A stretch of DNA of 64,000 bases, from NCBI RefSeq assembly GCF_003019035.1, contig NZ_CP027447.1; one strand, written 5' to 3'. Positions 1 through 62,160 of this stretch are shown piece after piece. Position numbers and translations under genes: made by a program. This DNA is from Escherichia coli. GTDB lineage: Bacteria; Pseudomonadota; Gammaproteobacteria; Enterobacterales; Enterobacteriaceae. Position 1 is the stretch's first letter; every line of letters starts with the position of its first letter. The notes beneath the pieces are model-generated. The model was not told the origin of the DNA and ran no database searches. It saw only the letters and a program-made list of their open reading frames with translations.

Positions 1-5143
<5,143 letters not shown>

Positions 5144-5145
5144 CA

Positions 5146-5487
5146 ATGCGAATATTTGTCTACGGCAGTTTACGCCACAAACAAGGCAACAGTCACTGGA
5201 TGACCAATGCCCAGTTACTGGGCGATTTCAGTATCGATAACTACCAGTTGTATAGCCTGGGCCACTATCCAGGCGCAGTTCCGGGGAACGGAACAGTACA
5301 CGGTGAAGTTTATCGTATTGACAACGCCACGCTGGCCGAACTTGATGCCTTGCGCACCAGGGGCGGTGAATACGCGCGCCAGTTGATTCAGACGCCGTAC
5401 GGGAGTGCATGGATGTACGTTTATCAACGACCCGTCGATGGATTAAAGCTAATTGAAAGCGGCGACTGGTTAGACAGGGATAAGTAA
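5146..5487 (+). CDS. ytfP: YtfP, gamma-glutamylcyclotransferase-family protein (113 aa)
   Basis: ORF immediately after tamB; starts MRIFVYGSLR, typical of the GGCT/AIG2-like family. Confidence 0.85.
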   Translation: MRIFVYGSLRHKQGNSHWMTNAQLLGDFSIDNYQLYSLGHYPGAVPGNGTVHGEVYRIDNATLAELDALRTRGGEYARQLIQTPYGSAWMYVYQRPVDGLKLIESGDWLDRDK

Positions 5488-5499
5488 CCATACGCATAC

Positions 5500-5526
5500 G
5501 CCACCTTCGGGTGGCGTTGTTTTTTG
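5500..5526 (+). terminator. Rho-independent terminator after ytfP
   Basis: GCCACC-TTCG-GGTGGC hairpin followed by a T-run (GTTGTTTTTTG). Confidence 0.6.
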
Positions 5527-5698
5527 CGAGACGACTCGCATTCTGTTTTGTAATTCCCTCACCTTTTGCTTTTCTCTCCGAGCCGCTTTCCATATCTGTT
5601 AACGCATAAAAAACTCTGCTGGCGTTCACAAATGCGCAGGGGTAAAACGTTTCCTGTAGCACCGTGAGTTATACTTTGTATAACTTAAGGAGGTGCAG

Positions 5699-5950
5699 AT
5701 GCGTATTACCATAAAAAGATGGGGGAACAGTTCAGGTATGGTCATTCCTAATGTTGTGATGAAAGAACTTAACTTACGGCCGGGGCAGAGCGTGGAGGCG
5801 CAAGTGAGCAACAATCAACTGATTCTGACACCCATCTCCAGGCGCTACTCGCTTGATGAACTGCTGGCACAGTGTGACATGAACGCCACGGAACTTAGCG
5901 AGCAGGATGTCTGGGGTAAATCCACCCCTGCGGGTGACGAAATATGGTAA
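5699..5950 (+). CDS. chpS: ChpS antitoxin (MazE-like), 83 aa
   Basis: Sequence MRITIKRWGNSSGMVIPN... recognised as ChpS; overlaps start of chpB; ORF-track start at 5693 is probably two codons too long. Confidence 0.85.
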   Translation: MRITIKRWGNSSGMVIPNVVMKELNLRPGQSVEAQVSNNQLILTPISRRYSLDELLAQCDMNATELSEQDVWGKSTPAGDEIW

Positions 5951-6294
5951 AGAAAAGTGAATTTGAACGGGGAGACATTGTGCTGGTTGGCTTTGATCCA
6001 GCAAGCGGCCATGAACAGCAAGGTGCTGGTCGACCTGCGCTTGTGCTCTCCGTTCAAGCCTTTAATCAACTGGGAATGACGCTGGTGGCCCCCATTACGC
6101 AGGGCGGAAATTTTGCCCGTTATGCCGGATTTAGCGTTCCTTTACATTGCGAAGAAGGCGATGTGCACGGCGTGGTGCTGGTGAATCAGGTGCGGATGAT
6201 GGATTTACGCGCCCGACTGGCAAAGCGTATTGGTCTGGCTGCGGGTGAGGTGGTGGAAGAGGCGTTATTACGTTTGCAGGCGGTGGTGGAATAA
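5944..6294 (+). CDS. chpB: ChpB (ChpBK) mRNA interferase toxin, MazF/PemK family, 116 aa
   Basis: PemK/MazF-like sequence; overlaps chpS stop as in the K-12 chpSB operon. Confidence 0.85.
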   Translation: MVKKSEFERGDIVLVGFDPASGHEQQGAGRPALVLSVQAFNQLGMTLVAPITQGGNFARYAGFSVPLHCEEGDVHGVVLVNQVRMMDLRARLAKRIGLAAGEVVEEALLRLQAVVE

Positions 6295-6372
6295 GGTGTG
6301 TTTATTTATCGCGGGCATAAAAAACCCCTACTAACCGAAGCCCGGCGTTCAGGGTTATTACGCTAGAAGAAC

Positions 6373-6903
6373 TTATTTATTCTTTGCGCGCTCGAAGGAG
6401 GCAACGATTTCAGCTTTAGCGGCTTCTGCGTTTTCCCAGCCTTCAACTTTCACCCACTTGCCTTTTTCGAGGTCTTTGTAGTGCTCGAAGAAGTGAGCGA
6501 TTTGCGCTTTCAGCAGCTCTGGCAGATCGTTAACGTCTTTAATGTGATCGTATTCTTTGCTCAGCTTGGTGTGCGGAACAGCAATCAGTTTCGCATCTTC
6601 ACCGGCTTCGTCGGTCATTTTCAGTACGCCAACCGGACGGCAGCGGATCACAGAACCCGGCTGCAGCGGGTACGGAGTCGGGACCAGTACGTCAACCGGG
6701 TCGCCGTCCAGAGACAGGGTGTGGTTGATGTAACCGTAGTTGCACGGATAGAACATCGCGGTGGACATGAAGCGGTCAACGAACAGTGCGCCGCTCTCTT
6801 TGTCGATTTCGTATTTGATCGGATCTGCGTTAGCCGGGATCTCAATAACAACGTAGATGTCTTCCGGCAGATCTTTACCCGCAGGGACGTTGAGTAAGCT
6901 CAT
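6373..6903 (-). CDS. ppa: Inorganic pyrophosphatase, 176 aa
   Basis: Starts [38 protein letters not shown], the classic Ppa sequence. Confidence 0.95.
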
Positions 6904-7212
6904 GTCTGTTTCCTTTAAAAATATGTGGCAAACAAGTGCCGAGTATTATAGCCAACTCGCGCCGAATGTCTTCGCTTGTTTTCTTCTTCATTTTCCTTTT
7001 TAGCCAGTTTTAAGGTGGTTTAAAGAGCAGGAAAATCCATAACCGTAGCCGCATTTTTCATAGTGAGATGAAAGCGATTACAAACTTGTGATTAACGTTT
7101 TATTTACTTTTTTGAAGTGTGATGTAACGCAATCCGTTACATAACGAATTGTCTATAGTTTTTTCGCGAACATCTTTTCACCAATAATAATTACCCCGAC
7201 GAGGACAACCCT

Positions 7213-8169
7213 ATGTGGAAACGCTTACTTGTAGTCTCTGCAGTCTCGGCAGCCATGTCGTCTATGGCGTTGGCCGCTCCATTAACCGTTGGATTTTCGC
7301 AGGTCGGATCGGAATCCGGCTGGCGCGCCGCAGAAACCAATGTGGCGAAAAGTGAAGCCGAAAAGCGCGGAATTACGTTGAAAATTGCCGATGGTCAGCA
7401 AAAGCAGGAAAACCAGATTAAAGCGGTACGTTCCTTCGTCGCGCAAGGGGTGGATGCGATCTTTATCGCTCCGGTGGTAGCGACCGGTTGGGAGCCGGTA
7501 TTAAAAGAGGCGAAAGATGCCGAAATCCCGGTCTTCTTGCTTGACCGTTCCATCGATGTGAAAGACAAATCTCTCTATATGACCACCGTCACTGCCGACA
7601 ACATCCTCGAAGGCAAATTGATCGGTGACTGGCTGGTAAAAGAAGTGAATGGCAAACCATGCAACGTGGTGGAGTTGCAGGGCACCGTTGGAGCCAGCGT
7701 CGCCATTGACCGTAAGAAAGGCTTTGCCGAAGCCATTAAGAATGCGCCAAACATCAAAATTATCCGCTCGCAGTCTGGTGACTTTACCCGTAGTAAAGGC
7801 AAAGAAGTGATGGAGAGCTTTATCAAAGCGGAAAACAACGGCAAAAACATCTGCATGGTTTACGCCCATAACGATGACATGGTGATTGGCGCGATTCAGG
7901 CAATTAAAGAAGCGGGCCTGAAACCGGGCAAAGATATCCTGACAGGCTCTATCGACGGCGTGCCGGACATCTACAAAGCGATGATTGATGGCGAAGCGAA
8001 CGCCAGCGTTGAACTAACGCCGAATATGGCAGGCCCTGCTTTTGACGCGCTGGAGAAATACAAAAAAGACGGCACCATGCCTGAAAAGCTGACGCTGACC
8101 AAGTCCACCCTTTACCTGCCTGATACCGCAAAAGAAGAGTTAGAGAAGAAGAAAAACATGGGGTATTGA
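7213..8169 (+). CDS. ytfQ: Periplasmic sugar-binding protein of the galactofuranose ABC transporter
   Basis: Signal peptide plus periplasmic-binding-protein fold sequence; first gene of the ytfQRT-yjfF operon. Confidence 0.9.
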   Translation: MWKRLLVVSAVSAAMSSMALAAPLTVGFSQVGSESGWRAAETNVAKSEAEKRGITLKIADGQQKQENQIKAVRSFVAQGVDAIFIAPVVATGWEPVLKEAKDAEIPVFLLDRSIDVKDKSLYMTTVTADNILEGKLIGDWLVKEVNGKPCNVVELQGTVGASVAIDRKKGFAEAIKNAPNIKIIRSQSGDFTRSKGKEVMESFIKAENNGKNICMVYAHNDDMVIGAIQAIKEAGLKPGKDILTGSIDGVPDIYKAMIDGEANASVELTPNMAGPAFDALEKYKKDGTMPEKLTLTKSTLYLPDTAKEELEKKKNMGY

Positions 8170-8174
8170 GGGGC

Positions 8175-8262
8175 ATCAATGCCTGATGCCGACTTGTGGG
8201 CCGCCGGATAAGGCATTCACGCCGCATCCGGCGGTTGTGCGAGATGCCTGATGCGACGCAGT
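8175..8262. repeat. REP/BIME palindromic repeat cluster between ytfQ and ytfR
   Basis: Repeated GCCTGATGCGACGC and GCCGGATAAGGC...GCATCCGGC motifs typical of E. coli REP elements. Confidence 0.7.
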
Positions 8263-8301
8263 TGTGTCTTATCTGGCGCACGCTTTACAACGGGGGAAAC
8301 T

Positions 8302-16663: not shown

Positions 16664-17053
<390 letters not shown>

Positions 17054-17063
17054 TTCTTTATTT

Positions 17064-17091
17064 CCCTGTTGCCTGCACTCAGGTAACAGGG
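17064..17091. terminator. Bidirectional terminator between cybC and nrdG
   Basis: CCCTGTT...AACAGGG hairpin between convergent genes. Confidence 0.5.
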
Positions 17092-17097
17092 AACTTA

Positions 17098-17562
17098 TCA
17101 TCTCAAATGATGCACCACCTGATTGCTGCTGCCGCGCCAGATCAGGGAAGGGTCTTTTAAATCCTGCATAAATTTGCCGTCGACCAGCACGTTAATCAAA
17201 TCAACAACCTGCATTTGCGCAGCGTTGAGTTCGTCGAGTTTATAGCCTGTCCACACCCAGATGTCTTTACCCGGACATTCGGCGCGGATGCGTTGTACCA
17301 GTTTCAGAATATCCGGCACGTTTTGCGGATGCAGCGGATCGCCGCCGGAGAGGGAAATCCCCTGGCGTTTGATACGAGTGTCATTCAGATCGTTAATGAT
17401 CTGGTCTTCCATTGCTTTGGTAAATGGCTGACCGGAATTTACCCGCCATGTGCTTTTGTTATAGCAACCGGGGCATTCATGAACACACCCGGAGACAAAC
17501 AGGGTGCAGCGAGTGCCGGGGCCGTTGACGATGTCGACAGGATAGTACTGATGATAATTCAT
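17098..17562 (-). CDS. nrdG: Anaerobic ribonucleotide reductase activating protein (radical SAM)
   Basis: CxxxCxxC radical-SAM cysteine motif (CVHECPGC); downstream of nrdD. Confidence 0.92.
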   Translation of the reverse strand: MNYHQYYPVDIVNGPGTRCTLFVSGCVHECPGCYNKSTWRVNSGQPFTKAMEDQIINDLNDTRIKRQGISLSGGDPLHPQNVPDILKLVQRIRAECPGKDIWVWTGYKLDELNAAQMQVVDLINVLVDGKFMQDLKDPSLIWRGSSNQVVHHLR

Positions 17563-17574
17563 TATTTCGCCTGG

Positions 17575-17700
<126 letters not shown>

Positions 17701-24559: not shown

Positions 24560-24822
24560 ATAGATGCTACGAATATTATTGGATTCTCCTTATTATTTGC
24601 GGCGCTTTTTTCACTTACCGGAGGTTATATGGAACCTGATCCCACGCCTCTCCCTCGACGGAGATTAAAACTTTTCCGGTAAGCCCGTCTTTTCACGGCG
24701 TTACCGGATGCGTAAGGCCGTGACGTTTTAACGTCCCTGCTCAGCTTTATTACCTTCAGGTAAGGCTTCGCCACGCCTGAAGACATTTCTGTACTGTTTC
24801 AGACAGTGCGGAGGGACTCCTT
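24560..24822 (+). promoter_or_regulatory. mgtA 5' leader (Mg2+/proline-sensing leader containing mgtL)
   Basis: Long untranslated region upstream of mgtA containing the proline-rich leader ORF mgtL; the regulatory role is established for E. coli/Salmonella mgtA. Confidence 0.65.
24629..24682 (+). CDS. mgtL: mgtA leader peptide MgtL (17 aa, [17 protein letters not shown])
   Basis: Exact proline-rich leader peptide read from the sequence, about 140 nt upstream of mgtA. Confidence 0.85.
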
Positions 24823-27519
24823 ATGTTTAAAGAAATTTTTACCCGGTTCATTCGCCATTTACCTTCCCGTCTGGTTCATCGCGATCCATTGCCTGGCGCG
24901 CAGCAGACAGTGAATACGGCGGTCCCGCCGTCCTTAAGTGCGCATTGCCTGAAAATGGCGGTGATGCCCGAAGAAGAATTGTGGAAAACGTTCGACACCC
25001 ATCCGGAAGGATTAAATCAGGCGGAAGTGGAATCTGCCCGCGAACAACATGGTGAAAATAAATTACCCGCACAACAACCGTCGCCGTGGTGGGTTCATTT
25101 ATGGGTCTGCTATCGCAACCCCTTTAATATTTTACTCACCATTCTCGGCGCTATTTCTTACGCCACGGAAGATTTATTTGCCGCGGGCGTTATCGCGCTA
25201 ATGGTCGCTATTTCTACGTTGCTGAACTTTATTCAGGAAGCACGTTCCACTAAAGCGGCAGATGCCCTGAAAGCGATGGTCAGCAATACTGCGACGGTGC
25301 TGCGCGTAATTAACGACAAAGGCGAAAATGGCTGGCTGGAGATCCCGATCGACCAGCTGGTGCCCGGCGATATTATAAAACTGGCGGCAGGGGATATGAT
25401 CCCGGCAGATTTACGTATCTTGCAGGCGCGGGATCTGTTCGTCGCTCAGGCGTCGTTAACCGGTGAGTCTCTGCCCGTGGAAAAAGCAGCTACTACTCGC
25501 CAGCCGGAGCACAGCAATCCGCTGGAGTGCGACACCCTGTGTTTTATGGGCACCACCGTGGTGAGCGGCACGGCACAAGCAATGGTGATTGCCACAGGTG
25601 CCAATACCTGGTTTGGTCAACTGGCGGGGCGTGTTAGTGAGCAGGAAAGCGAGCCGAATGCCTTTCAGCAAGGGATCAGCCGCGTCAGTATGCTGCTGAT
25701 TCGCTTTATGCTGGTGATGGCTCCGGTGGTGTTGCTTATCAACGGTTATACCAAAGGCGACTGGTGGGAAGCGGCACTGTTTGCGCTTTCGGTCGCGGTA
25801 GGCTTAACGCCAGAAATGTTGCCGATGATTGTTACCTCGACGCTGGCGCGCGGCGCAGTAAAGCTGTCGAAACAGAAAGTGATCGTCAAGCATCTGGATG
25901 CCATTCAGAACTTTGGCGCAATGGATATTCTGTGCACTGATAAAACCGGCACCCTGACGCAGGACAAAATTGTGCTGGAGAATCATACCGATATCTCCGG
26001 TAAAACCAGCGAACGCGTGCTGCATAGCGCGTGGTTGAACAGTCATTACCAGACCGGGCTTAAAAACCTGCTTGATACCGCGGTGCTCGAAGGTACGGAT
26101 GAAGAGTCAGCGCGCTCGCTGGCCAGCCGTTGGCAAAAAATTGATGAGATTCCGTTTGATTTCGAGCGTCGTCGGATGTCGGTGGTTGTGGCAGAAAATA
26201 CCGAACACCATCAGCTGGTTTGCAAAGGCGCATTGCAGGAAATCCTCAATGTGTGTTCGCAGGTGCGTCACAATGGCGAGATTGTGCCGCTCGATGACAT
26301 TATGCTGCGTAAGATTAAGCGGGTTACTGATACGCTGAATCGTCAGGGGCTGCGCGTGGTTGCGGTGGCGACGAAATACCTGCCAGCGCGTGAAGGAGAT
26401 TACCAGCGGGCGGATGAATCCGACCTGATCCTCGAAGGATATATTGCTTTCCTTGATCCGCCAAAAGAGACAACTGCTCCGGCACTGAAGGCATTAAAAG
26501 CGAGTGGCATTACCGTAAAAATCCTTACTGGCGACAGTGAGTTAGTTGCAGCGAAAGTGTGCCATGAAGTGGGGCTGGACGCGGGAGAGGTGGTCATTGG
26601 TAGTGATATTGAAACGCTATCTGACGACGAACTGGCAAATCTCGCACAGCGCACCACGCTGTTTGCCCGCCTGACGCCGATGCATAAAGAACGCATCGTA
26701 ACGTTGCTGAAGCGCGAAGGGCATGTGGTTGGCTTTATGGGCGATGGTATTAATGATGCGCCCGCCTTACGCGCTGCGGATATCGGCATTTCTGTGGACG
26801 GCGCGGTAGATATTGCCCGTGAAGCGGCTGATATCATCCTACTGGAAAAAAGCCTGATGGTGCTGGAAGAGGGGGTTATTGAGGGACGTCGCACTTTCGC
26901 CAACATGCTGAAATACATCAAAATGACGGCGAGCTCTAACTTCGGTAATGTGTTCAGCGTGCTGGTGGCGAGTGCTTTCTTGCCCTTCCTGCCGATGTTG
27001 CCGCTACACTTGCTTATTCAGAACCTGCTGTACGATGTGTCACAGGTGGCGATCCCATTTGATAACGTCGACGACGAGCAAATTCAAAAGCCGCAGCGTT
27101 GGAATCCGGCGGATCTGGGGCGCTTTATGGTCTTCTTCGGACCGATCAGCTCGATTTTCGATATTCTGACGTTTTGCCTGATGTGGTGGGTATTCCATGC
27201 CAACACGCCGGAAACGCAAACGCTGTTCCAGTCGGGCTGGTTTGTGGTGGGATTACTGTCGCAAACGCTGATTGTGCATATGATCCGCACCCGTCGTGTA
27301 CCGTTTATTCAGAGCTGTGCATCGTGGCCGTTAATGATCATGACCGTGATCGTGATGATTGTCGGGATCGCATTGCCGTTTTCACCGCTGGCCAGTTATC
27401 TGCAGCTGCAGGCGCTGCCGTTAAGCTATTTCCCGTGGCTGGTTGCGATTCTGGCAGGGTATATGACGTTAACCCAGTTGGTGAAAGGGTTCTATAGCCG
27501 TCGTTACGGTTGGCAGTAA
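24823..27519 (+). CDS. mgtA: Mg2+-importing P-type ATPase, 898 aa
   Basis: P-type ATPase motifs (DKTGTLT phosphorylation site, GDGINDAPAL hinge). Confidence 0.95.
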   Translation: MFKEIFTRFIRHLPSRLVHRDPLPGAQQTVNTAVPPSLSAHCLKMAVMPEEELWKTFDTHPEGLNQAEVESAREQHGENKLPAQQPSPWWVHLWVCYRNPFNILLTILGAISYATEDLFAAGVIALMVAISTLLNFIQEARSTKAADALKAMVSNTATVLRVINDKGENGWLEIPIDQLVPGDIIKLAAGDMIPADLRILQARDLFVAQASLTGESLPVEKAATTRQPEHSNPLECDTLCFMGTTVVSGTAQAMVIATGANTWFGQLAGRVSEQESEPNAFQQGISRVSMLLIRFMLVMAPVVLLINGYTKGDWWEAALFALSVAVGLTPEMLPMIVTSTLARGAVKLSKQKVIVKHLDAIQNFGAMDILCTDKTGTLTQDKIVLENHTDISGKTSERVLHSAWLNSHYQTGLKNLLDTAVLEGTDEESARSLASRWQKIDEIPFDFERRRMSVVVAENTEHHQLVCKGALQEILNVCSQVRHNGEIVPLDDIMLRKIKRVTDTLNRQGLRVVAVATKYLPAREGDYQRADESDLILEGYIAFLDPPKETTAPALKALKASGITVKILTGDSELVAAKVCHEVGLDAGEVVIGSDIETLSDDELANLAQRTTLFARLTPMHKERIVTLLKREGHVVGFMGDGINDAPALRAADIGISVDGAVDIAREAADIILLEKSLMVLEEGVIEGRRTFANMLKYIKMTASSNFGNVFSVLVASAFLPFLPMLPLHLLIQNLLYDVSQVAIPFDNVDDEQIQKPQRWNPADLGRFMVFFGPISSIFDILTFCLMWWVFHANTPETQTLFQSGWFVVGLLSQTLIVHMIRTRRVPFIQSCASWPLMIMTVIVMIVGIALPFSPLASYLQLQALPLSYFPWLVAILAGYMTLTQLVKGFYSRRYGWQ

Positions 27520-27563
27520 GCAAGTGATGAAGCTGGCCTGAAATACTCTTTCAGGTCAGTCTG

Positions 27564-41713: not shown

Positions 41714-43228
<1,515 letters not shown>

Positions 43229-51857: not shown

Positions 51858-52421
51858 ATGGCGGGTGAAAGCTTTATTTTGATGGGCGTTTCAGGGAGTG
51901 GTAAAACATTAATTGGTAGCAAGGTTGCCGCGTTATTATCTGCTAAATTTATTGATGGTGACGATCTTCATCCAGCCAAAAATATAGATAAAATGTCGCA
52001 GGGTATTCCATTATCTGATGAAGATCGACTTCCCTGGCTGGAACGCTTAAATGATGCTTCATACAGTCTTTATAAAAAGAATGAAACAGGATTTATTGTC
52101 TGTTCATCATTAAAAAAACAGTATCGTGATATTTTACGCAAGGGTAGCCCCCATGTTCATTTCCTCTGGTTAGATGGCGACTATGAAACTATTCTCGCGC
52201 GAATGCAGCGGCGGGCTGGGCATTTTATGCCGGTAGCGTTACTAAAAAGTCAGTTTGAGGCGCTGGAGCGTCCACAAGCAGATGAACAGGATATTGTGCG
52301 CATTGATATCAACCATGATATTGCCAATGTCACCGAACAATGTCGGCAGGCTGTGCTGGCGATACGACAAAACAGAATATGTGCGAAAGAGGGCAGCGCC
52401 TCAGATCAGCGCTGCGAATGA
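51858..52421 (+). CDS. idnK: Thermosensitive gluconokinase
   Basis: P-loop GVSGSGKT of the gluconokinase family; divergent from idnD. Confidence 0.88.
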   Translation: MAGESFILMGVSGSGKTLIGSKVAALLSAKFIDGDDLHPAKNIDKMSQGIPLSDEDRLPWLERLNDASYSLYKKNETGFIVCSSLKKQYRDILRKGSPHVHFLWLDGDYETILARMQRRAGHFMPVALLKSQFEALERPQADEQDIVRIDINHDIANVTEQCRQAVLAIRQNRICAKEGSASDQRCE

Positions 52422-52424
52422 TTT

Positions 52425-53444
52425 TCAAAAATCGGCTTTCAACACCACGCGGTAACGCGCCTTACCGTCGCGCACATGCTGGATGGCGTCGTTAATTTTC
52501 GACATCGGGAACAGTTCGGTAGTTGGCGCAACCTTGCTGCGGGCGGCAAAGCGCATCAGCTTACGCAGCTCATAAGGCGTGCCGGTAGCAGAGCCAGAGA
52601 CGCAGCGGTCGCCCGCAATTAACGTAAAGGCCGGAACAGACAGCGGCGTGAGAACCGCACCGACCGTATGGAAATTACCGCCATACGTCAGCGCCTCAAA
52701 ATAAGGCTGCCAGTCGAGGCTGACGTTCACAGTATTGATAATGAGATCAAACTGCCCCGCCAGAGTTTTCAGTGCCTGCGGATCGCGGCTATTCACCACT
52801 TTATCGGCACCCATCGCCAGTACTTCCTGCTCTTTCGCCGGATTTGAACTAAAGGCTGTCACCTCGCATCCCATTGCGTGCAGAAGTTTTATAGCGATAT
52901 GCCCCAGCCCGCCAATACCAATTACCCCAACGCGGCTGGTAGCAGTGATATGGTGCATCAACAGTGGTTTAAAGACCGTGATACCGCCGCACAACAGCGG
53001 CCCGGCGGACTCGATATCAATATTTTCTGGCAGCGGAATCACCCATTGCCAGTCCGCACGCAACTTCTCGGCAAAGCCGCCGCGATTCATAATTGTTGGC
53101 ACCGCACCTTGCTCGCAGTTGATCTGATTACCGCTAATACAGGCATCGCAATGCCCGCAGCTGCGTGCCGTCCAGCCAATCCCGACACGCTGACCGACCT
53201 GCAAACCTTTATCCTGTGCGGCACTCCCGAGCGCCACCACGCGACCAATCACCTCATGCCCGGCAACCAGCGGATACTGTGAAAATCCCCATTCATTGTC
53301 GATCATCGATAGATCGGAATGGCAGATCCCGCAATAATCCACCTGCACTTCAACATCTTGTGGCCTCAGCTCACCGGGATCGTACTCATAAACTTCCAGT
53401 TCGCCGCCCGCTTCTTTTGCGGCATAGCTTTTTATCATCGACAT
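52425..53444 (-). CDS. ahr: NADPH-dependent aldehyde reductase Ahr (YjgB), 339 aa
   Basis: Zn-ADH motifs ([11 protein letters not shown]); internal ATG start chosen. Confidence 0.88.
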
Positions 53445-53639
53445 GCTTTTATCCTTCTCTGGTGTTGTCTGGGAAGTGTAGAGCATGGCAGGGCGGAGTG
53501 CCTGGAGTGTGACAAAGGTTACACATCGCTGAGTGTAATGCTGAAAATTTCAGCACTTAGCGAGATGCGAGCAAGCTGGCGCTTGCATGGTGGCGTGCGA
53601 CAGGTATAATCCACAACGTTTTCCGCATACCTCTTCAGT

Positions 53640-53724
53640 GCCGAAGTGGCGAAATCGGTAGACGCAGTTGATTCAAAATCAACCGTAGAAATACGTGCCG
53701 GTTCGAGTCCGGCCTTCGGCACCA
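53640..53724 (+). tRNA. leuX: tRNA-Leu (anticodon CAA)
   Basis: GCCGAAGTGGCGAAATCGGTAGACGCAGTTGATTCAAAATCAACCGTAGAAATACGTGCCGGTTCGAGTCCGGCCTTCGGCACCA; anticodon loop TTCAAAA; encoded CCA end. Confidence 0.95.
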
Positions 53725-53913
53725 TACAAAGCTTTTTTTAAGTCTACTAACGTCTACTTTAGTCCATAAAAACAGTAAGTTAAGCGAGTTTCTGACTTGG
53801 CTTAGTCTGTTAACGTCTACTCAATTCCTTGAACATATACCAACCGATGATGGTATAACTGATGGTATTCCCGGTTCGATTGATTTTGATACCAACACAG
53901 GAGGTATCAACTG

Positions 53914-55161
53914 ATGGCTCTCACGGATATCAAAGTTAGGACTACCAAGCCCTCTGACAAACCCTTCAAACTTACTGATGGGCAGGGTATGCACCTCCTG
54001 GTCAACCCCAATGGTTCAAAATACTGGCGACTCCAATACCGTTTCGATGGCAAACAAAAAGTTTTAGCATTGGGTGTTTATCCAATGGTCTCTCTTGGTG
54101 AAGCTCGCAGGAAACGAGATGAGGCCAAAAAGTTGGTATCTGATGGTATCGACCCTTCCGAGAAGAAAAAAGCAGACAAGATCGAGCAGAGCGAAGCCCT
54201 GACATTCGAAGCTGTTGCAAGGGACTGGCATACTGCCTGTAAAAGGAAATGGTCAGATTCCCATAGTGAAAGGGTTTTAAAGAGCCTTGAAGACAACCTT
54301 TTCTCTTCCATAGGACAGAGAAAAATAGCCGAGCTTAAAACTAAGGATCTTCTCGAACCAGTCAAAACTGTTGCGGCTTCTGGACGACTAGAAGTAGCTG
54401 CTCGTCTGCAACAACGAACCACAGCAATCATGCGATATGCCGTCCAGAATGGCTTAATTGACTACAATCCAGCACAAGATATGTCTGGGGCAATTACAGT
54501 TGCGAAACGAACCCACAGACCAGCCTTACCATTTGATAGGTTCTCAGAGCTTTTAGAGCGCATTGAAAGCTTTAAAGGTAGGAAACTTACTAAATTAGTT
54601 GTGAAGCTGACATTGCTCATTTTTATCCGTTCCAGTGAACTCCGATTCGCAAGATGGTCGGAGATCGACTTTGAAAATGCGATGTGGACTATCCCTGGAG
54701 AACGCGAGCCATTACCAGGAGTCAAACATTCCCATCGAGGCTCAAAAATGAAGACCCCACACCTCGTGCCGTTAAGTCGTCAGGCCTTAGAACTTCTAAA
54801 AGTCATCAGAGAAATCAGCGGTGAATGCGACCTTGTATTCATTGGCGATCATGATTTCAGAAAACCTATGAGCGAAAACACAGTCAACAAGGCACTAAGG
54901 TCAATGGGTTATGACACAACCGTTGAGGTATGTGGGCATGGTTTTAGAGCAATGGCTTGTAGTGCTTTGATCGAGTCAGGAAAGTGGTCGAGAGATGCTG
55001 TTGAACGGCAGATGAGCCATCAGGAGCGGAACTCCGTTCGTGCCGCATACATTCATAAAGCTGAGCATTTGGACGAGCGTAGGTTGATGTTGCAGTGGTG
55101 GGCTGATTATCTTGATGAAACAACTAAGAGAAGAATTGCACCTTTCGATTTTAATAACTAA
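53914..55161 (+). CDS. int: P4-type tyrosine integrase (IntB-like)
   Basis: N-terminus MALTDIKVRTTKPSDKPFKLTDGQGMHLLVNPNGSKYWRLQYRFDGK typical of P4-family integrases; AGGAGG RBS; tRNA-adjacent. Confidence 0.9.
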   Translation: MALTDIKVRTTKPSDKPFKLTDGQGMHLLVNPNGSKYWRLQYRFDGKQKVLALGVYPMVSLGEARRKRDEAKKLVSDGIDPSEKKKADKIEQSEALTFEAVARDWHTACKRKWSDSHSERVLKSLEDNLFSSIGQRKIAELKTKDLLEPVKTVAASGRLEVAARLQQRTTAIMRYAVQNGLIDYNPAQDMSGAITVAKRTHRPALPFDRFSELLERIESFKGRKLTKLVVKLTLLIFIRSSELRFARWSEIDFENAMWTIPGEREPLPGVKHSHRGSKMKTPHLVPLSRQALELLKVIREISGECDLVFIGDHDFRKPMSENTVNKALRSMGYDTTVEVCGHGFRAMACSALIESGKWSRDAVERQMSHQERNSVRAAYIHKAEHLDERRLMLQWWADYLDETTKRRIAPFDFNN

Positions 55162-55179
55162 CTGATTTTTATAAGTAAA

Positions 55180-55218
55180 ATGGCGTATTCAATAACCAAT
55201 TGAGACGCCATTTTTTTA
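55180..55218 (+). terminator. Rho-independent terminator after int
   Basis: ATGGCGT...ACGCCAT hairpin followed by TTTTTTTATTT. Confidence 0.6.
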
Positions 55219-55230
55219 TTTGCGATTTAT

Positions 55231-56142
55231 GTGCTATTACGAAGTAAAGCTTTTTACAACGGAGTGGCATTAATGAAATCTTGGGTAAAAATGAATAGTT
55301 GGACATCAGAAGACACCAAAGCAGTGAAAACGTGGTTTGATTTGGACAAATATCGAGAGTTTGAAAACATTTCTATTAATATGCTTTACCATGAAATATG
55401 GGCGAGAACCTATTTTTTCAAACCAGTAATAGAAGAAGGAATGCAGAACACAGTATTGAAAAATTATATGCAGATATTGGATGGTGATCCTTTTCTTATC
55501 AAAGAGAAGCACTTAAATTATATGGATGCCGAAAATAAATTATATCAACCCCCATACTTTTTTATTACTACTGTTGATCGAATAGCAAATATCAGTTTTG
55601 ATTGTATGAGAAAGGCTTTATTCATTAGAGCAAATACAGAACAATATAAAATTGATTCCACTATTGAAAATGAATATATTTCCGAAAAAATTCCTGAACA
55701 GTTTCCTACTACGATTATGTTAGAAATCGATCTTGCGGGTGGAAGCGATGATGAGATAGCTGAGGCCCTGCGAGTATCATTACCACAATGGCGAAAAGTA
55801 AAAGGCGTTAAACCTGCACCACTTGATGCAGTCAGATTTGGTTATGGGGCAATAAAAAAATTAATTAGCTATCGAATTATTCCTATGCTTGATTTGCTCG
55901 CATGGTCAGAAAGAAAAAAAGTACTTCTGTCAGACGACAGATTATCTCGATTGCTATACACGGATGAAGATGATGATAAGGCGATTCGCCAAGGATATCA
56001 TATAAGAGATGCTGATCGGCCTTTCGCAATGAAAACTGTAGAAATTGATTTTTTAAGGCAATTTAACTTTTTTATCAATAAAAATCAGCATGTTAAAGAA
56101 ATGAGGGTTTCGGATGTTATGAAACTCTCAGATTCTGAGTGA
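55231..56142 (+). CDS. Hypothetical protein (about 290-303 aa) between int and alpA
   Basis: Uninterrupted AT-rich ORF; likely true start is ATG at 55273 (GGAG 9 nt upstream); no recognisable motifs. Confidence 0.6.
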   Translation: MLLRSKAFYNGVALMKSWVKMNSWTSEDTKAVKTWFDLDKYREFENISINMLYHEIWARTYFFKPVIEEGMQNTVLKNYMQILDGDPFLIKEKHLNYMDAENKLYQPPYFFITTVDRIANISFDCMRKALFIRANTEQYKIDSTIENEYISEKIPEQFPTTIMLEIDLAGGSDDEIAEALRVSLPQWRKVKGVKPAPLDAVRFGYGAIKKLISYRIIPMLDLLAWSERKKVLLSDDRLSRLLYTDEDDDKAIRQGYHIRDADRPFAMKTVEIDFLRQFNFFINKNQHVKEMRVSDVMKLSDSE

Positions 56143-56262
56143 TATGAATATCCAGAGACTCATAGTTTCGAGCCAAGGATGGCTCTGGTGTTCGTAATCT
56201 CGCTTCATCCATTCGAAATTCATTTGTACTGTAGCCCTGTAGACACAACAGAGGACATACAC

Positions 56263-56466
56263 ATGGAAAATCAAGCTCGTCTCATCCGTTTACCAGAAGT
56301 CATGAAGAAAACTGGATTTGGTAAAGCGTGGATCTATAGGCTTATCAGCAAGGGATGTTTTCCTCAACCAGTAAAAATTGGTCTTCGTGCAGTAGCTTTT
56401 GTAGAGAGCGAAGTAGATAATTGGATCCATGAAACGATTAGTTCTTCGAGAAATAAAGTTTCTTAG
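56263..56466 (+). CDS. alpA: AlpA-family phage/island transcriptional regulator (67 aa)
   Basis: MENQARLIRLPEVMKKTGFGKAWIYRLISKGCFPQPVKIGLRAVAFVESEVDNWI is the AlpA/Prophage_CP4-57 HTH signature; GAGGA RBS. Confidence 0.85.
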   Translation: MENQARLIRLPEVMKKTGFGKAWIYRLISKGCFPQPVKIGLRAVAFVESEVDNWIHETISSSRNKVS

Positions 56467-56913
56467 AAAATAAATAAAGAATATTAACACAAATTGTTAG
56501 ACTTTATGGTTGATGTTAATTAAGAGACGATTATGGTATATTAATATAATTTATGAGGTTGAATCCATTTTAAAAAATGGGGTAATAAAAAGGGGCTGTT
56601 TAGAAGCAATTACGCATTGTTATTCTAAATATGAACTAATTAATTATAAAATATCTTTTTTATTTTAAAATGATTATTGTGGTTCTTTCTTCAAATGTCA
56701 ATTTCCTTAACCTATTAAATTAGTGGATCACCGTAATGTATAAGAGTGAACCGTTTGTATTAGATTTTACTTATGAATATTTAGTCGTTTTCACTCAGGC
56801 ATCAAATTGTTGATGAATATATGTTGATTTTGATTCAAAACGAAATAGTCTATTTCTTATACATTTGATATAAAGGGTTATATTGGTATGCTGTACATCA
56901 GAAATGATATGCT

Positions 56914-57168
56914 TTATTTGTTTTTCGCTAATGCTACATATCGTCTATAATATGCAATTGCGCTATATTTTGTCGTATTCATTTTTTCAGCAACTTCTTT
57001 CCATTTTAAACCTGATGATCTTAGTTCAAAAGCAAGCTTTCTTTTTTCAGTTGCTACCCTTTCGTAATTCTCACGGCTAATGCCGTAATATTTTATCACT
57101 GTTGAACGAGATACACCTGCAGCCTTAGCTAAGTCTTTTGCTTTAATTAATTTCCCATGAATTATCAT
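56914..57168 (-). CDS. Small HTH DNA-binding protein (84 aa)
   Basis: HTH-like segment (KAKDLAKAAGVSRSTVIKYY); overlaps the stop of the upstream rep gene by 4 bp. Confidence 0.55.
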   Translation of the reverse strand: MIIHGKLIKAKDLAKAAGVSRSTVIKYYGISRENYERVATEKRKLAFELRSSGLKWKEVAEKMNTTKYSAIAYYRRYVALAKNK

Positions 57169-58013
57169 AATAATGCCTCCAATGCTATTTCTAATTTTTT
57201 TTGCGTTTTTCTTGTTTTTTTTGCTCTTATTGATTGTATTGTCGAAAATTTCTGAATTGAAAAATTACGCCATGTCCATTTACAAATACTGCTACAAATT
57301 TGTTTTGTCTCTTCATGAGATAATGGATTATGAGGGTTGCTATGATTATTAAGTAAAGTCGCTTTTGATAGCATATCATAAAAAAAACAACGATAGTTTT
57401 TACGTTTTTTAAAACTTAATACTTCTTTATAAGCAATAATTCTTAAATCTTCGAATAAGTTAACGTTGCGGCCCAACCCATGTATAACACTTTTCTTTTT
57501 ACTCGAAATTCTTATTTTGTCTGGGATAAAATCTAAGAGGTATTGTAGATCATATGCTGAAGTATTTGTCCATGTCGTTCTCCATTCATGAATGTTGAGA
57601 GGGTTTTTCATTAAAACATCAGCATAAGCTCTGTCTGCATCTAACCTTTCTGTAAATCCACTCTGAACAATAGCGGCCAATTTTAAAGGCTTATCTCTTG
57701 CCATGTCTGTTTTTAATACCGGATTTTTTAAAGCATAAAGTAAATGAGCATGGCCATTTTTTATGTTTTGTATGATCGTATTTGGTATTGGTAAACCAAC
57801 TAAGTCCCATGCGACCGCTCCATATTTGTGATCTATATCAAAAACCAAACCGTTAATAAAAGATTTGTTATTAAAACAAATATATTTCTTTAGAAGGGCT
57901 TTGTCTTTAGGGGCTCTGTATACCCCATCTCTAAAATCATCACAGCATAAAGCATATTTTTGAATTTGCAGCTTGTATTTTTCTACATTATATATATTTT
58001 CGTCATTTAACAT
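57165..58013 (-). CDS. Putative replication initiation protein (plasmid/satellite Rep-like), 282 aa
   Basis: Family-level resemblance to plasmid replicase/primase-type initiators, recalled from memory; flanked by AT-rich non-coding DNA. Confidence 0.45.
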   Translation of the reverse strand: MLNDENIYNVEKYKLQIQKYALCCDDFRDGVYRAPKDKALLKKYICFNNKSFINGLVFDIDHKYGAVAWDLVGLPIPNTIIQNIKNGHAHLLYALKNPVLKTDMARDKPLKLAAIVQSGFTERLDADRAYADVLMKNPLNIHEWRTTWTNTSAYDLQYLLDFIPDKIRISSKKKSVIHGLGRNVNLFEDLRIIAYKEVLSFKKRKNYRCFFYDMLSKATLLNNHSNPHNPLSHEETKQICSSICKWTWRNFSIQKFSTIQSIRAKKTRKTQKKLEIALEALL

Positions 58014-58561
58014 TTATAATCTCCTTATTGTATTCTCCATTTTATTGTATTTTTCTAAAAAGGAGATGCATATTATTTTTATAATTATTTAATAAGGGAT
58101 TTTAAAAGTTTGTCAAGTGTCTAAAAGCCATATCAGATATTAGGTGTTTCTTTTAGGGTTATAATAACAAGAGGGAGGTGCTTCAATGACAATATAAATG
58201 ATGATAGTTTTTTTTAAGTGCAGCTCATAAATCATTATGGCATATTGTAATATGATTACTTTTTATCTGATTAAAAGTAAATATCGATCGCAGATCTTTT
58301 AATTTAATTGTTAATTCAATAATCTGGTCTTGTCAAATTTTCATGGTTAAACTTCAACTTCCTTTATATACAAATCAGATATTTTAAATTTATAACAACA
58401 ATATTTGTAAGCCATAGGAGATATAGAATGTATAAGTTAATTTTTTTTCCAGTTAATACCTGTGATTGTTTTTATTTTGGCGATATAGTTCATTACTTGA
58501 CAATTTAAAAAAAGAATATATAAGTATTTAGATTGATATAGTTAAATTTAAGGATGGTACC

Positions 58562-58975
58562 ATGCAAAATACAAAGCTTAATATTATGGAGCGATATTTG
58601 ATACTGCTCGATAAGTTTGTCGATAAAATTATCGAATCAGGCGTTTCTGAACAACAATTGATCGAGAAGTCGTATCTGTTCTGTGCAGGGTATTATATTA
58701 AGTACCAGCAAGAAATTGAAAGGCTGACATTCTCAAATAAAGATGTCGTTTTAACATTTCTATTATTTTCATACTACAATTATATTAATGAGTTAGATAA
58801 TAATTTAATTAACAAAGTAAGGATGAGGAGAACATGTTCATTACTTATTAATTTCATTGTCGATAATGGTAGTCAGACAGAAAAAATTTATGTGCAGGAA
58901 AAAAAGAAGTACAAATCTTATACATTGAAAAGGGATTTATCAGTAAAGAATAAAAGGAAAAAATATGGTTTATAA
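58562..58975 (+). CDS. Hypothetical protein, 137 aa
   Basis: ORF with AAGGA RBS; AT-rich; basic C-terminus. Confidence 0.5.
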   Translation: MQNTKLNIMERYLILLDKFVDKIIESGVSEQQLIEKSYLFCAGYYIKYQQEIERLTFSNKDVVLTFLLFSYYNYINELDNNLINKVRMRRTCSLLINFIVDNGSQTEKIYVQEKKKYKSYTLKRDLSVKNKRKKYGL

Positions 58976-59292
58976 CAATATGAAAACTTCCGTGATTTGA
59001 ATTTAAGGCTTTCACCTTATTATCCGATGCCTACATGAAAAATGCCAAAACTTACATAGCTTGCTCCAGCACAAGCAATGTAGAAATCAACTTTATCTCC
59101 TTTAAACATAATCGTGATTGTTTCGTTGCTTCCATGGAGTACCGATGGCAGGGATTTATATCGTTGTCTGGGACTGACCGTTATGCTTATTGTATAAACA
59201 TTTATCTTTGCTGCCAGAAGGGCTCAGACTGTAAGATTCGATAAGGATGCTAACATATTCTATTCGCGATTTTACCGTTCAAGATTTTAATT

Positions 59293-59964
59293 TTAAAATT
59301 GTATTGACTTAATAACGCTTCTGAGTGCGTTATCAAATCTTTGGCTTCTTCTCTTTATCCATTTAATGCAGGTAAAGCTTCCAAGTCGTGAGGCAAAATA
59401 GGTTAACCACATATATTTGTGTTCGTCAAAAACATATCCAGATTTAAACCCCCATGGCAATACAAAAAATGAAATAATCGCAATGCAACAAAGCAAGATA
59501 AATATGGTGGAAAAAAATTTAGGAACAGGCATCGCCCTATAATAAAATGCCATCGAAGCGTTAGGGAAAAGTACGGTGAGAAACGCAGGGATAATAATTG
59601 TCTTTCTATTTAAGTTGACTTCGTATTCACCCGTGGTTGTATTAACAATGAGAGCATCTTTGAAGGCACTAAATGAACCATTAACTCTATACTGGCGAAG
59701 CTCGTATTTACAAATTTTGTGAGATTTTATAAATGTGATACCAAAGGCTGGAATCTGTGTCTCATCCCCCGTATCGGTTTTAACCCAAACTTGGTCAGTA
59801 ATTGGGAGGGGACTGATGACAGTAGCAGAAAAGGTCTCAACGAACATGTAGGTTTCGCCGAACAACTCGAATTTAGGTGTTGTCATCTCAGCTTTCGTTT
59901 CCCGGCGACTTAACGGGTCAATGTTAACTTCTTTATTGCAGTGTTTCGTGATGGAGCTGCTCAT
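59293..59964 (-). CDS. Hypothetical membrane-anchored protein, 223 aa
   Basis: Soluble N-terminal domain followed by two hydrophobic helices (IIIPAFLTVLFP..., FSTIFILLCCIAIISFFVL). Confidence 0.5.
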   Translation of the reverse strand: MSSSITKHCNKEVNIDPLSRRETKAEMTTPKFELFGETYMFVETFSATVISPLPITDQVWVKTDTGDETQIPAFGITFIKSHKICKYELRQYRVNGSFSAFKDALIVNTTTGEYEVNLNRKTIIIPAFLTVLFPNASMAFYYRAMPVPKFFSTIFILLCCIAIISFFVLPWGFKSGYVFDEHKYMWLTYFASRLGSFTCIKWIKRRSQRFDNALRSVIKSIQF

Positions 59965-60249
59965 ACAAATTCCTATGTTTAAGATGAAATCAGATTCGAT
60001 GATGTATGAAATCGTTCAGTTCCAAAGATGGAATAATGTCTGCCATTTCCAGTACCGGTGCATTAATGAAAAGGATATAGACTAGTAAAATCATAATGTT
60101 AGCATTACAGTGTGAACTAACATTTTGACTAGGTTTACAGGAAACGCAAATCACTTGTACCGATCGATTAACAAATAATGATAGATTATAGCTATCAGTC
60201 TATCTTTATCGATCGGTATAAACGATCAATTTTAGGGGTATGTTGCTTA

Positions 60250-61518
60250 CTAAAATCTACATGTAAGGTGGTAATGTTGCCTTGGCGGCACTAAATTGCC
60301 GTCAAGTAAAGGCTCCACAAAAGTGTTTTTGGGATTGATGGGATGGATTTCTATCTTCATCGCTTCAGTGATGACTTGGTGCTTTGCGGGGCGTCTAAGA
60401 ATTGGGATTTTAAGTTGTCTCAGCAGACGATAAATCGTATCAAGGTAAGGGATGGTTTCCATCCATCTGAATGCTGAGACCTCGTAGCTTTGATTAGGCA
60501 TCTCTTTTACGGCTATAGTAGCTATCGCTTTCTTACTCCCTGCTAAAGCTTCCGAGGAACACTTCTCTTCTACATAAGCGACAGCACTTTCGTCTTTACC
60601 TGCATGCCTATCAATAATAAAAGCTTCGAAGGAGTTTTTAACGTTTTCCTTTAATATTTCGTTTGGATTCGCTTTAGTGATAGTTGCTTTTAGGTCAAAC
60701 AGAAAGCCGTTATCGCGTTCTGGTCTATAATCGAGTTTACCCTGCAAGGTCGACCATGAATAACACTTAGCTAATTGCGAAGCTTTGAAAGCAATCCCGG
60801 CGTATTCGAATGAGAAACCATTCATTTTACCTGTAGATGTGATATTGGGTAATGCATTAATATTTTGTTCAAAAAGCTGTTGGACAAACTCAGTGGTCGA
60901 TACTCTTTTAGAAACTAACGTCTCTAAAGCGTTCTGGATGATGGTTTTTGGGCATTGTTCACCTGTCCTTTTCTCTTGCATCGCTTCATTTCGTGTTTTT
61001 TTTCGTTTTAGTTTAGGGCAGGGCAATGCTAAAGAGGTTTTTGTTTTAGGGCCTTTGGTTCTTAGTAGCGAATAGTCGTGTTCAAGCTGTTGGATAATGC
61101 GTGTACTAATCAGGTTTTCATTTTTTCCGAGATAGAGTTTGCCTGTAATACGGTCTATGCGGCTGGCGATAATGTGGATGTGTTGACCGACCGCATCGTC
61201 ATGCAACACGTAGCATCTGAGATGCGTTTCCGAGAAGCCGATGCGCTTCATATAGTCATCAGCTATAGCGGACCACTGAGCATCGGTTAGCACTTCGTCC
61301 TTTGGTAAACGAAGCGAATTGTGCCAAACAGGTTTATCCACATCAGGGCGAAGCGTTTTTGTTAGATTGAATTCAGTGATCAGATCTTTCGCTGCACACC
61401 CATCCATATTTCCCCCGATCACGACAGGAGCTACCCTATGATGAGAATCTGGTTTTAACGTATAGAGGACGATCCCGATAAAATTCTTACCTCTGCGGAT
61501 CTTTTGCATTCCCTTCAT
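60250..61518 (-). CDS. Mobilization relaxase (MobA/VirD2-type), about 422 aa
   Basis: Histidine-triad-like motif HDDAVGQHIHIIASRID typical of relaxases; ATG at 61518 with GGGGAG RBS, overlapping mobC 3' end; track ORF starts at an upstream TTG. Confidence 0.75.
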   Translation of the reverse strand: MKGMQKIRRGKNFIGIVLYTLKPDSHHRVAPVVIGGNMDGCAAKDLITEFNLTKTLRPDVDKPVWHNSLRLPKDEVLTDAQWSAIADDYMKRIGFSETHLRCYVLHDDAVGQHIHIIASRIDRITGKLYLGKNENLISTRIIQQLEHDYSLLRTKGPKTKTSLALPCPKLKRKKTRNEAMQEKRTGEQCPKTIIQNALETLVSKRVSTTEFVQQLFEQNINALPNITSTGKMNGFSFEYAGIAFKASQLAKCYSWSTLQGKLDYRPERDNGFLFDLKATITKANPNEILKENVKNSFEAFIIDRHAGKDESAVAYVEEKCSSEALAGSKKAIATIAVKEMPNQSYEVSAFRWMETIPYLDTIYRLLRQLKIPILRRPAKHQVITEAMKIEIHPINPKNTFVEPLLDGNLVPPRQHYHLTCRF

Positions 61519-61924
61519 CGGAGTCTCCCCACAAGTCGGCGGTGATGAGATGTAAGCGAAGATCGGCAATTTGTCGCTTCACTGCAAATAGTTCCGTTTT
61601 TGTCAGGTGGCTTCCGGTACTTTTGTTATCAAGGTGGGCAACAATTTTATTTAGTTTCTGTGAAAGGTCAGCTAAAGATCTCCATGCTTTTATATTAATA
61701 GCTGGAACAACACCAGGAAGCGCATTAAGAAAAGATAAACGAAGCCATTCCCCTTTGCGATGCTGGCCACGTTTTTCATTTAGAAGCGTCAGCTCTTTAT
61801 CATTAAGCCTGACACTGACGCAATGATTACGAATTTGCTTGCGTGAAAGCTTCGTTTCGCAAGAGCTTCTACAGGAAGCTCGCGTATTTATAATAGTCTT
61901 ATTGAAATTATTATTACTGACCAT
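61487..61924 (-). CDS. mobC: MobC-type mobilization accessory protein (145 aa)
   Basis: Characteristic RLNDKELTLLNEKRGQ... segment directly upstream of the relaxase; AAGAGG RBS. Confidence 0.7.
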   Translation of the reverse strand: MVSNNNFNKTIINTRASCRSSCETKLSRKQIRNHCVSVRLNDKELTLLNEKRGQHRKGEWLRLSFLNALPGVVPAINIKAWRSLADLSQKLNKIVAHLDNKSTGSHLTKTELFAVKRQIADLRLHLITADLWGDSDEGNAKDPQR

Positions 61925-62054
61925 ATTAACCTCTTTTTAAATATATAAATAAAAATATTATTTTATTTATATAATAAAATAGTCAGATGTCAATATACAT
62001 GTATTATATTGATTTTAACTTTTTTCAACTGAAAGGCGAAAAAACAAGGGGAAA

Positions 62055-62084
62055 CTCAATGAAGCAGCGTAGCGCTTCGTTGAG
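62055..62084. promoter_or_regulatory. Candidate oriT inverted repeat upstream of mobC
   Basis: CTCAATGAAGC-(8 nt)-GCTTCGTTGAG imperfect 11-bp inverted repeat in the AT-rich region between mobC and the divergent gene. Confidence 0.4.
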
Positions 62085-62160
62085 TTAGCCCTTGCTTTAA
62101 CAATATTGACCAAAATCTCTTTTTAATATAAAATGAATCCTAAGAGGGATGGAGGTATAC

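Follow-up and report, generated by a model that had tools for sequence, protein, structure and literature searches.

The chpSB toxin-antitoxin pair of the Escherichia coli ytfP-ppa spacer and its decayed counterpart

The chromosome of E. coli K-12 carries the chpSB toxin-antitoxin module between ytfP and ppa. Does the stretch of E. coli DNA analyzed here, 64,000 nucleotides long and referred to below as the window, carry a complete copy of this module, and is the module a constant part of the E. coli chromosome? The original prediction was a ChpS antitoxin gene and a ChpB MazF-family endoribonuclease gene, overlapping by 7 bp at positions 5699..6294, and it described the pair as a known K-12 module in the core region.

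The gene pair at the ytfP-ppa site

From the sequence and the list of open reading frames (ORFs), the chpS antitoxin gene occupies positions 5699..5950 of the plus strand (83 amino acids; ATG at 5699, TAA at 5948-5950), and the chpB (ChpBK) toxin gene occupies positions 5944..6294 of the same strand (116 amino acids; ATG at 5944, TAA at 6292-6294). The two genes share 7 nt on the plus strand (5944..5950, ATGGTAA), so that the start codon of chpB lies within the 3' end of chpS. Set against the sequence, the ORF list, and the annotated gene limits, the predicted coordinates and overlap proved exact. The antitoxin gene immediately precedes and overlaps the co-oriented toxin gene, which is the layout of a type II operon, and the ATGGTAA overlap suggests that the translation of chpS and chpB is coupled. 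A Shine-Dalgarno sequence, AAGGAGG, is present at 5687..5693 of the plus strand, 5 nt upstream of the chpS ATG. The ORF list opens the chpS ORF at GTG 5693. Since this codon falls within the ribosome-binding site and since ATG 5699 is the start that PGAP assigned to chpS in E. coli 2016C-3878, in a segment 100% identical to ours, we placed the chpS start at ATG 5699. The PGAP annotation of that identical segment contains the same gene pair.

The neighbors are the same as in K-12, with tamB (1364..5143) and ytfP (5146..5487) upstream and ppa (6373..6903, minus strand) and ytfQ (7213..8169) downstream. The order tamB-ytfP-chpS-chpB-ppa-ytfQ is common to the window, K-12, and strain 2016C-3878, and it puts the pair at its K-12 position, between ytfP and ppa and downstream of tamAB. 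The GC contents of chpS (0.50) and chpB (0.54) are like those of the neighboring genes (0.51-0.55), and the annotated neighborhood showed no mobile-element genes adjoining chpSB.

The chpSB module of K-12 was reportedly first described by Masuda et al. in 1993, and its biochemical characterization is said to be that of Zhang et al. in 2005. The K-12 operon (chpBI/chpBK; b4224/b4225) has the same gene order, 7-nt overlap, protein lengths (83 and 116 amino acids), and ytfP and ppa flanks as the window copy. Its upstream palindrome and ribosome-binding site are identical to those of the window, and the DNA over the two genes is 98.0% identical. Window ChpS is 95% identical to b4224 of K-12 MG1655 (A12S, I19V, Q27R, and A64T), and window ChpB is 98% identical to b4225 (H89R and D101G). 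Alignment to K-12, run for frameshifts or truncations, revealed none in ChpS or ChpB, which have the K-12 lengths, and at the DNA level it contained substitutions alone, without any indel. These identities and the shared gene order bear out the description of the pair as a known K-12 module. Together, these results leave us highly confident that the window contains an intact chromosomal Escherichia chpSB (chpBI-chpBK) type II toxin-antitoxin operon at its ancestral ytfP-ppa site; no observation spoke against this identification. The pair is real, already known, and ordinary, and it sits in its usual chromosomal place. As chpSB has been known since 1993, is biochemically characterized, and is annotated automatically by PGAP, finding it here matters little; what we add is that this copy is intact and that chpSB is not core, the ytfP-ppa spacer having long existed in two states, of which chpSB is one.

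Two states of the ytfP-ppa spacer in E. coli

We counted chpSB as present when at least 80% of its coding region was covered, in a set of 5426 complete E. coli genomes. The coding region was found in 3097 of them (57%), in single copy and with 95-100% identity to the window except in one record; 538 records had at least 99% identity. A further 2322 genomes (43%) contained at the same site a decayed remnant of chpB, 142 nt long and common to all of them. Intact and remnant forms account for 5419 of the 5426 genomes, and the site is therefore essentially dimorphic. The term "core region" in the original prediction thus suits the neighboring genes but not the chpSB module.

In BL21(DE3) and many other strains, the ytfP-ppa spacer measures 379 nt and keeps both flanks, with the 142-nt piece between them. 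This remnant (1154-1295 of the extracted BL21(DE3) locus) is 72% identical to nucleotides 19-145 of chpB and has stops in the three forward frames; the spacer that contains it is devoid of chpS, of the palindrome, and of the 3' two-thirds of chpB. Among the records listed, the remnant is unannotated in all but that of strain HH45. Copies of the remnant differ by up to ~9% between lineages (APEC O1, for example, 93%). Between the intact and remnant states, the left flank is 88% identical and the right flank 96%, so the remnant, with its 72% identity to chpB, is far more diverged than its surroundings. E. coli HH45 showed a third form, a 512-nt spacer (1698-2209 of the extracted HH45 locus) composed of a GC-rich low-complexity run, then a 5' piece of chpB matching the intact gene with 100% identity, and finally a 3' junction of the remnant type. 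PGAP annotated a partial PemK/MazF pseudogene in this spacer, which may be a recombinant of the intact and remnant states or an assembly artifact. Overall, the sequence comparison indicates that chpSB was lost through one old deletion, which now marks 43% of E. coli.

To place the intact state in a wider context, we used a degenerate GHEQQGAGRPA pattern, specific for ChpB, to scan one genome per species across 100,044 species; four Escherichia records alone were matched. All four contain tamB-ytfP-chpS-chpB-ppa, and their ChpB and ChpS are 91-97% and 88-94% identical to those of the window, compared with 98-100% for the neighbors. The same synteny was seen in three other Escherichia species-level lineages, including cryptic clades and E. 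whittamii. Given this shared synteny, chpSB is old at this site within Escherichia rather than a recent insertion. We also considered plasmid-borne copies. Seven near-identical matches in PLSDB were either very large records or a 94-kb record with the chromosomal neighbors tamB-ytfP...ppa-ytfQ; as these matches carry chromosomal neighbors, we rejected mobility of chpSB. More distant PLSDB matches (66-72% DNA identity) lie on Burkholderia and Mycetohabitans replicons, in genes whose annotation is that of a ChpB-family toxin.

Work that relies on the presence of chpSB as a marker should take the dimorphism into account; in association studies such as PMC6096937, a signal could stem from lineage structure.

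Protein families, predicted activity, and the window allele

ChpS matched the NCBIfam ChpS equivalog NF008463 with 192.8 bits (cut-off 101) over positions 1-83 of 83, and ChpB matched the ChpB equivalog NF007320 with 226.8 bits (cut-off 129) over positions 1-116 of 116. Both scores are nearly twice the cut-off, and these full-length matches support the predicted identities of a ChpS antitoxin and a ChpB MazF-family endoribonuclease. In Pfam, the MazE_antitoxin family (PF04014, AbrB/SpoVT/MazE DNA-binding domain) covered residues 5-49 of ChpS (E = 1.5e-11), and PemK_toxin (PF02452) matched ChpB with 88.7 bits (cut-off 23.1, E = 3.7e-25) over positions 1-108 of the 109 of the profile. The C-terminal tail of ChpS is acidic, contains Trp, and is of the MazE-like toxin-binding type; the alignment of ChpS with MazE (1mvf_D; also 1ub4) runs end to end, with the "WG" motif and the terminal W conserved. 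By these profile and alignment data, ChpS is an AbrB/MazE-type antitoxin with an N-terminal DNA-binding domain and ChpB is a full-length endoribonuclease of the MazF/PemK/Kid family. A sequence search of the PDB returned no structure of ChpB or ChpS, the nearest entries being Kid (1m1f) and MazE (1mvf and 1ub4). Among solved structures, Kid 1m1f is nearest to ChpB (E = 6e-21 over 107 residues), and eight other distinct MazF-family toxin sequences in the PDB matched ChpB with E values below 1e-6. The sequences of these relatives support for ChpB a predicted fold of the MazF/Kid/CcdB type, an SH3-like barrel dimer. Neither ChpS nor ChpB matched any of the PADLOC defense-system models, which leaves no support for counting it among the catalogued anti-phage systems.

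We then examined the catalytic positions. In a phmmer alignment to 3nfc_A, R30 and T52 of ChpB correspond to R29 and T52 of E. coli MazF, which act as general acid/base and stabilizing residue, respectively (PMC8887465). ChpB H23 aligns with Kid H17, and Arg73 and Asp75 of Kid are replaced by Leu79 and Asn81 in ChpB. The R73/H17/D75 set of Kid is also reported as not conserved between S. aureus PemK and aligned homologs (PMC8887465). K-12 ChpBK cuts single-stranded RNA at ACY (Y = U, A, or G), on either side of the A and independently of the ribosome, yields products with a 2',3'-cyclic phosphate and a 5'-OH, and behaves as a weak toxin that reduces protein synthesis just partly (PMC5408214, PMC2814082, and PMC12151602). 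The K-12 toxin is known to inhibit growth if produced without its antitoxin (PMC5408214); an acidic pI was proposed as the cause of this weak activity (PMC5408214). The window ChpB is presumed to be an ACY RNase as well, a property carried over from the published work on the 98%-identical K-12 protein.

On the K-12 work and by analogy with MazE-MazF and Kis-Kid, the module would function as follows. ChpB would cleave RNA at ACY, weakly and without the ribosome, in the manner of MazF and Kid. ChpS probably neutralizes ChpB by direct binding, as MazE-MazF homology and the K-12 literature suggest: its acidic, Trp-containing tail would occupy and block the RNA-binding groove of the ChpB dimer. Coupled translation across the 7-nt overlap would let the antitoxin be made before the toxin, proteolysis of the labile ChpS would set ChpB free, and ChpS or ChpS-ChpB would repress the operon by binding the palindrome that covers a -10-like hexamer.

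Among related systems, Kid/PemK-Kis/PemI of plasmids R1 and R100 (PDB 1m1f) shares with ChpB the GHEQQG..RP motif, the His at Kid position 17 (ChpB H23), and the GGNFAR loop. However, Kid is plasmid-borne whereas chpSB is chromosomal, ChpB has one more residue than Kid in the loop before the catalytic Arg, and the RNA specificities differ (UAH for Kid and ACY for ChpB; PMC5408214). E. coli MazEF (chpA) belongs to the same fold family as chpSB, has the same operon design, and likewise cleaves independently of the ribosome, but it occupies a different locus; the published identity is ~35% (PMC5408214), and ChpB recognizes a broader site (ACY compared with ACA) and is the weaker toxin (PMC5408214 and PMC12151602).

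Comparison with five other Escherichia sequences singled out several features of the window allele. Four residues occurred in none of the five and are thus derived in the window allele: S12, V19, and R27 of the ChpS DNA-binding domain, and G101 of ChpB. At ChpB position 89, the window and four of the five other sequences have R, and K-12 is the exception with H, which points to H89 as the derived state. ChpS T64 was seen only in the window among the six sequences, at a variable site occupied by A in K-12 and by P in the remaining four. At pH 7, ChpB has a calculated net charge of -2.2 in the window compared with -4.1 in K-12, or ~2 units less negative, and it is conceivable that the less acidic window protein has a somewhat higher toxic activity. 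Identity to 2016C-3878 is 100% over the chpSB segment (5480-6380), compared with 98.6-99.3% for the rest of the window (1-53725 compared); outside chpSB, the two genomes differ by several indels and in the leuX island. The window is therefore from a strain other than 2016C-3878. The locus looks, from these identities, like part of a recombination mosaic.

We weighed two other readings of the pair against an intact chpSB operon. The pair might be a different module of the MazEF family, either mazEF/chpA or an integrated, plasmid-derived pemIK or kis-kid, given that chpSB, mazEF, pemIK, and kis-kid form one superfamily and that the closest solved relative is Kid. We give this practically no credence: ChpB scored 62.7 bits against the MazF equivalog (cut-off 120) and ChpS 34.8 bits against the MazE equivalog (cut-off 113), both below the cut-offs, whereas the ChpB and ChpS equivalogs are passed easily. 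Moreover, the two proteins show 95-98% identity with their K-12 counterparts ChpS and ChpB and are encoded at the K-12 chpSB site, no mobile-element genes adjoin them, and the "plasmid" matches are pieces of chromosome. The K-12 alignments rule out mazEF, pemIK, or kis-kid as the identity of the pair.

The other reading is that chpSB, while still in place, has decayed in function through an inactive toxin or a nonregulating antitoxin, and is heading for the loss that 43% of E. coli genomes have undergone. In its favor, the locus is dispensable and deleted in many lineages, the substitutions of the window allele include lineage-specific ones (ChpB D101G and three within the DNA-binding domain of ChpS), and the chpS codons that differ from K-12 comprise 4 nonsynonymous and 2 synonymous changes, which are tiny counts. 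Nevertheless, both ORFs are full length without stop or frameshift, catalytic Arg30 and Thr52 of ChpB are retained, the profile scores are far over the cut-offs, the substitutions are all conservative or outside catalytic positions, and the same allele type (at least 99% DNA identity) occurs in 538 genomes. We consider decay very improbable and retain the intact operon as the preferred reading. On the persistence of the two spacer states, an unlikely scenario is that selection has kept both for a very long time, or that introgression from a divergent Escherichia lineage has done so, with a window allele functionally unlike that of K-12 in regulation or toxin strength, given the three changes in the ChpS DNA-binding domain and the less acidic ChpB.

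Upstream palindrome, flanking hairpins, and other elements of the window

An imperfect palindrome directly 5' of chpS (5654..5698) has arms of 21 nt that are 76% complementary, and the inverted-repeat search detected within it a perfect core, AGTTATAC-ttt-GTATAACT (5667..5685). Reading the sequence, we noted inside the palindrome a -10-like hexamer, TATACT (5670..5675, plus strand), with 5 of 6 matches to TATAAT. A consensus scan of 5100-7300 yielded no full sigma-70 promoter upstream of chpS, and no acceptable -35 element for TATACT was found by that scan or by eye, so the promoter at TATACT is tentative. K-12, E. whittamii, and two cryptic Escherichia clades have exactly the palindrome, core included, and the chpS ribosome-binding site of the window, and E. 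coli E69 has one change in the core; the palindrome is conserved across Escherichia, but the compared sequences are too close to show selection. By analogy with mazEF and kis-kid, the palindrome is a putative autoregulatory operator for ChpS or ChpS-ChpB.

As RNA, the palindrome (5654-5698) folds with -19.8 kcal/mol (z = -3.58), and none of 200 shuffled sequences folded as well. Were the palindrome transcribed from an upstream start, as in read-through from ytfP, the resulting hairpin would hide the chpS Shine-Dalgarno sequence, a possible second layer of control beside the binding of protein to the DNA operator. Transcription starting downstream of TATACT would leave one palindrome arm alone in the RNA.

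An intrinsic terminator of ytfP at 5498..5526 (plus strand) separates ytfP from the chpSB unit. It has an 8-bp GC-rich stem (ACGCCACC/GGTGGCGT) and a 4-nt loop (stem-loop 5498-5517), followed by a T run; it also appeared as an inverted repeat, was the sole terminator that the scan of 5100-7300 found nearby, and is kept in BL21(DE3), which is without chpSB. On the other side, the chpB-ppa spacer measures 78 nt. Folding of 6295-6375 on the minus strand gave a hairpin with a U run (6319..6356, minus strand), which is a candidate terminator of ppa. The fold energy (-18.8 kcal/mol, z = -0.43) is not significant, and the region 3' of chpB folds no better than shuffled sequence on either strand. The hairpin was absent from the terminator-scan output, and it is also present in BL21(DE3), without chpSB. 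Its assignment as the probable ppa terminator is therefore weak; lacking a T tail on the plus strand, the hairpin would stop chpSB transcripts weakly if at all.

A scan of the whole window with Rfam at gathering level found no RNA family in or adjoining 5488-6372. Elsewhere, it detected naRNA4 at 8202-8278, in the ytfQ-ytfR spacer; an Mg riboswitch at 24614-24729, apparently the mgtA leader by offset from the 2016C-3878 annotation; and Ysr276 at 42473-42667 on the plus strand, in the region equivalent to pepA, which is on the minus strand in 2016C-3878, so that Ysr276 would be antisense.

Other parts of the window also vary. In strain 2016C-3878, cybC and nrdG are separated by a type II toxin-antitoxin pair of the RelB/DinJ-RelE kind (17116-17638 of the extracted locus). 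The window is without this pair, its cybC (16667..17053) and nrdG (17098..17562, minus strand) lying 44 nt apart (17054-17097); the neighborhood of chpSB thus includes, at cybC-nrdG, a second site where a toxin-antitoxin pair is variably present. Two stretches, 27519-28083 and 36801-38235, had no megablast match in 2016C-3878; by offset from the annotation of that strain, these variable segments lie after mgtA and around yjgM/yjgN, respectively. At the far end (53640-64000), the tRNA-Leu(CAA) gene leuX (53640..53724) is followed by an integrated element. The closest complete genome is that of S19-651 (96.5% identical), where the annotation of this element includes a tyrosine integrase, a DUF6387 protein, an HTH regulator, a replication initiator, a relaxase, an sce7726-family protein, a "beta family protein," and an ImmA/IrrE peptidase. 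At least 80% of window positions 52000-64000 was found in just 3 of the 5426 genomes, and the leuX element is a rare mobilizable island.
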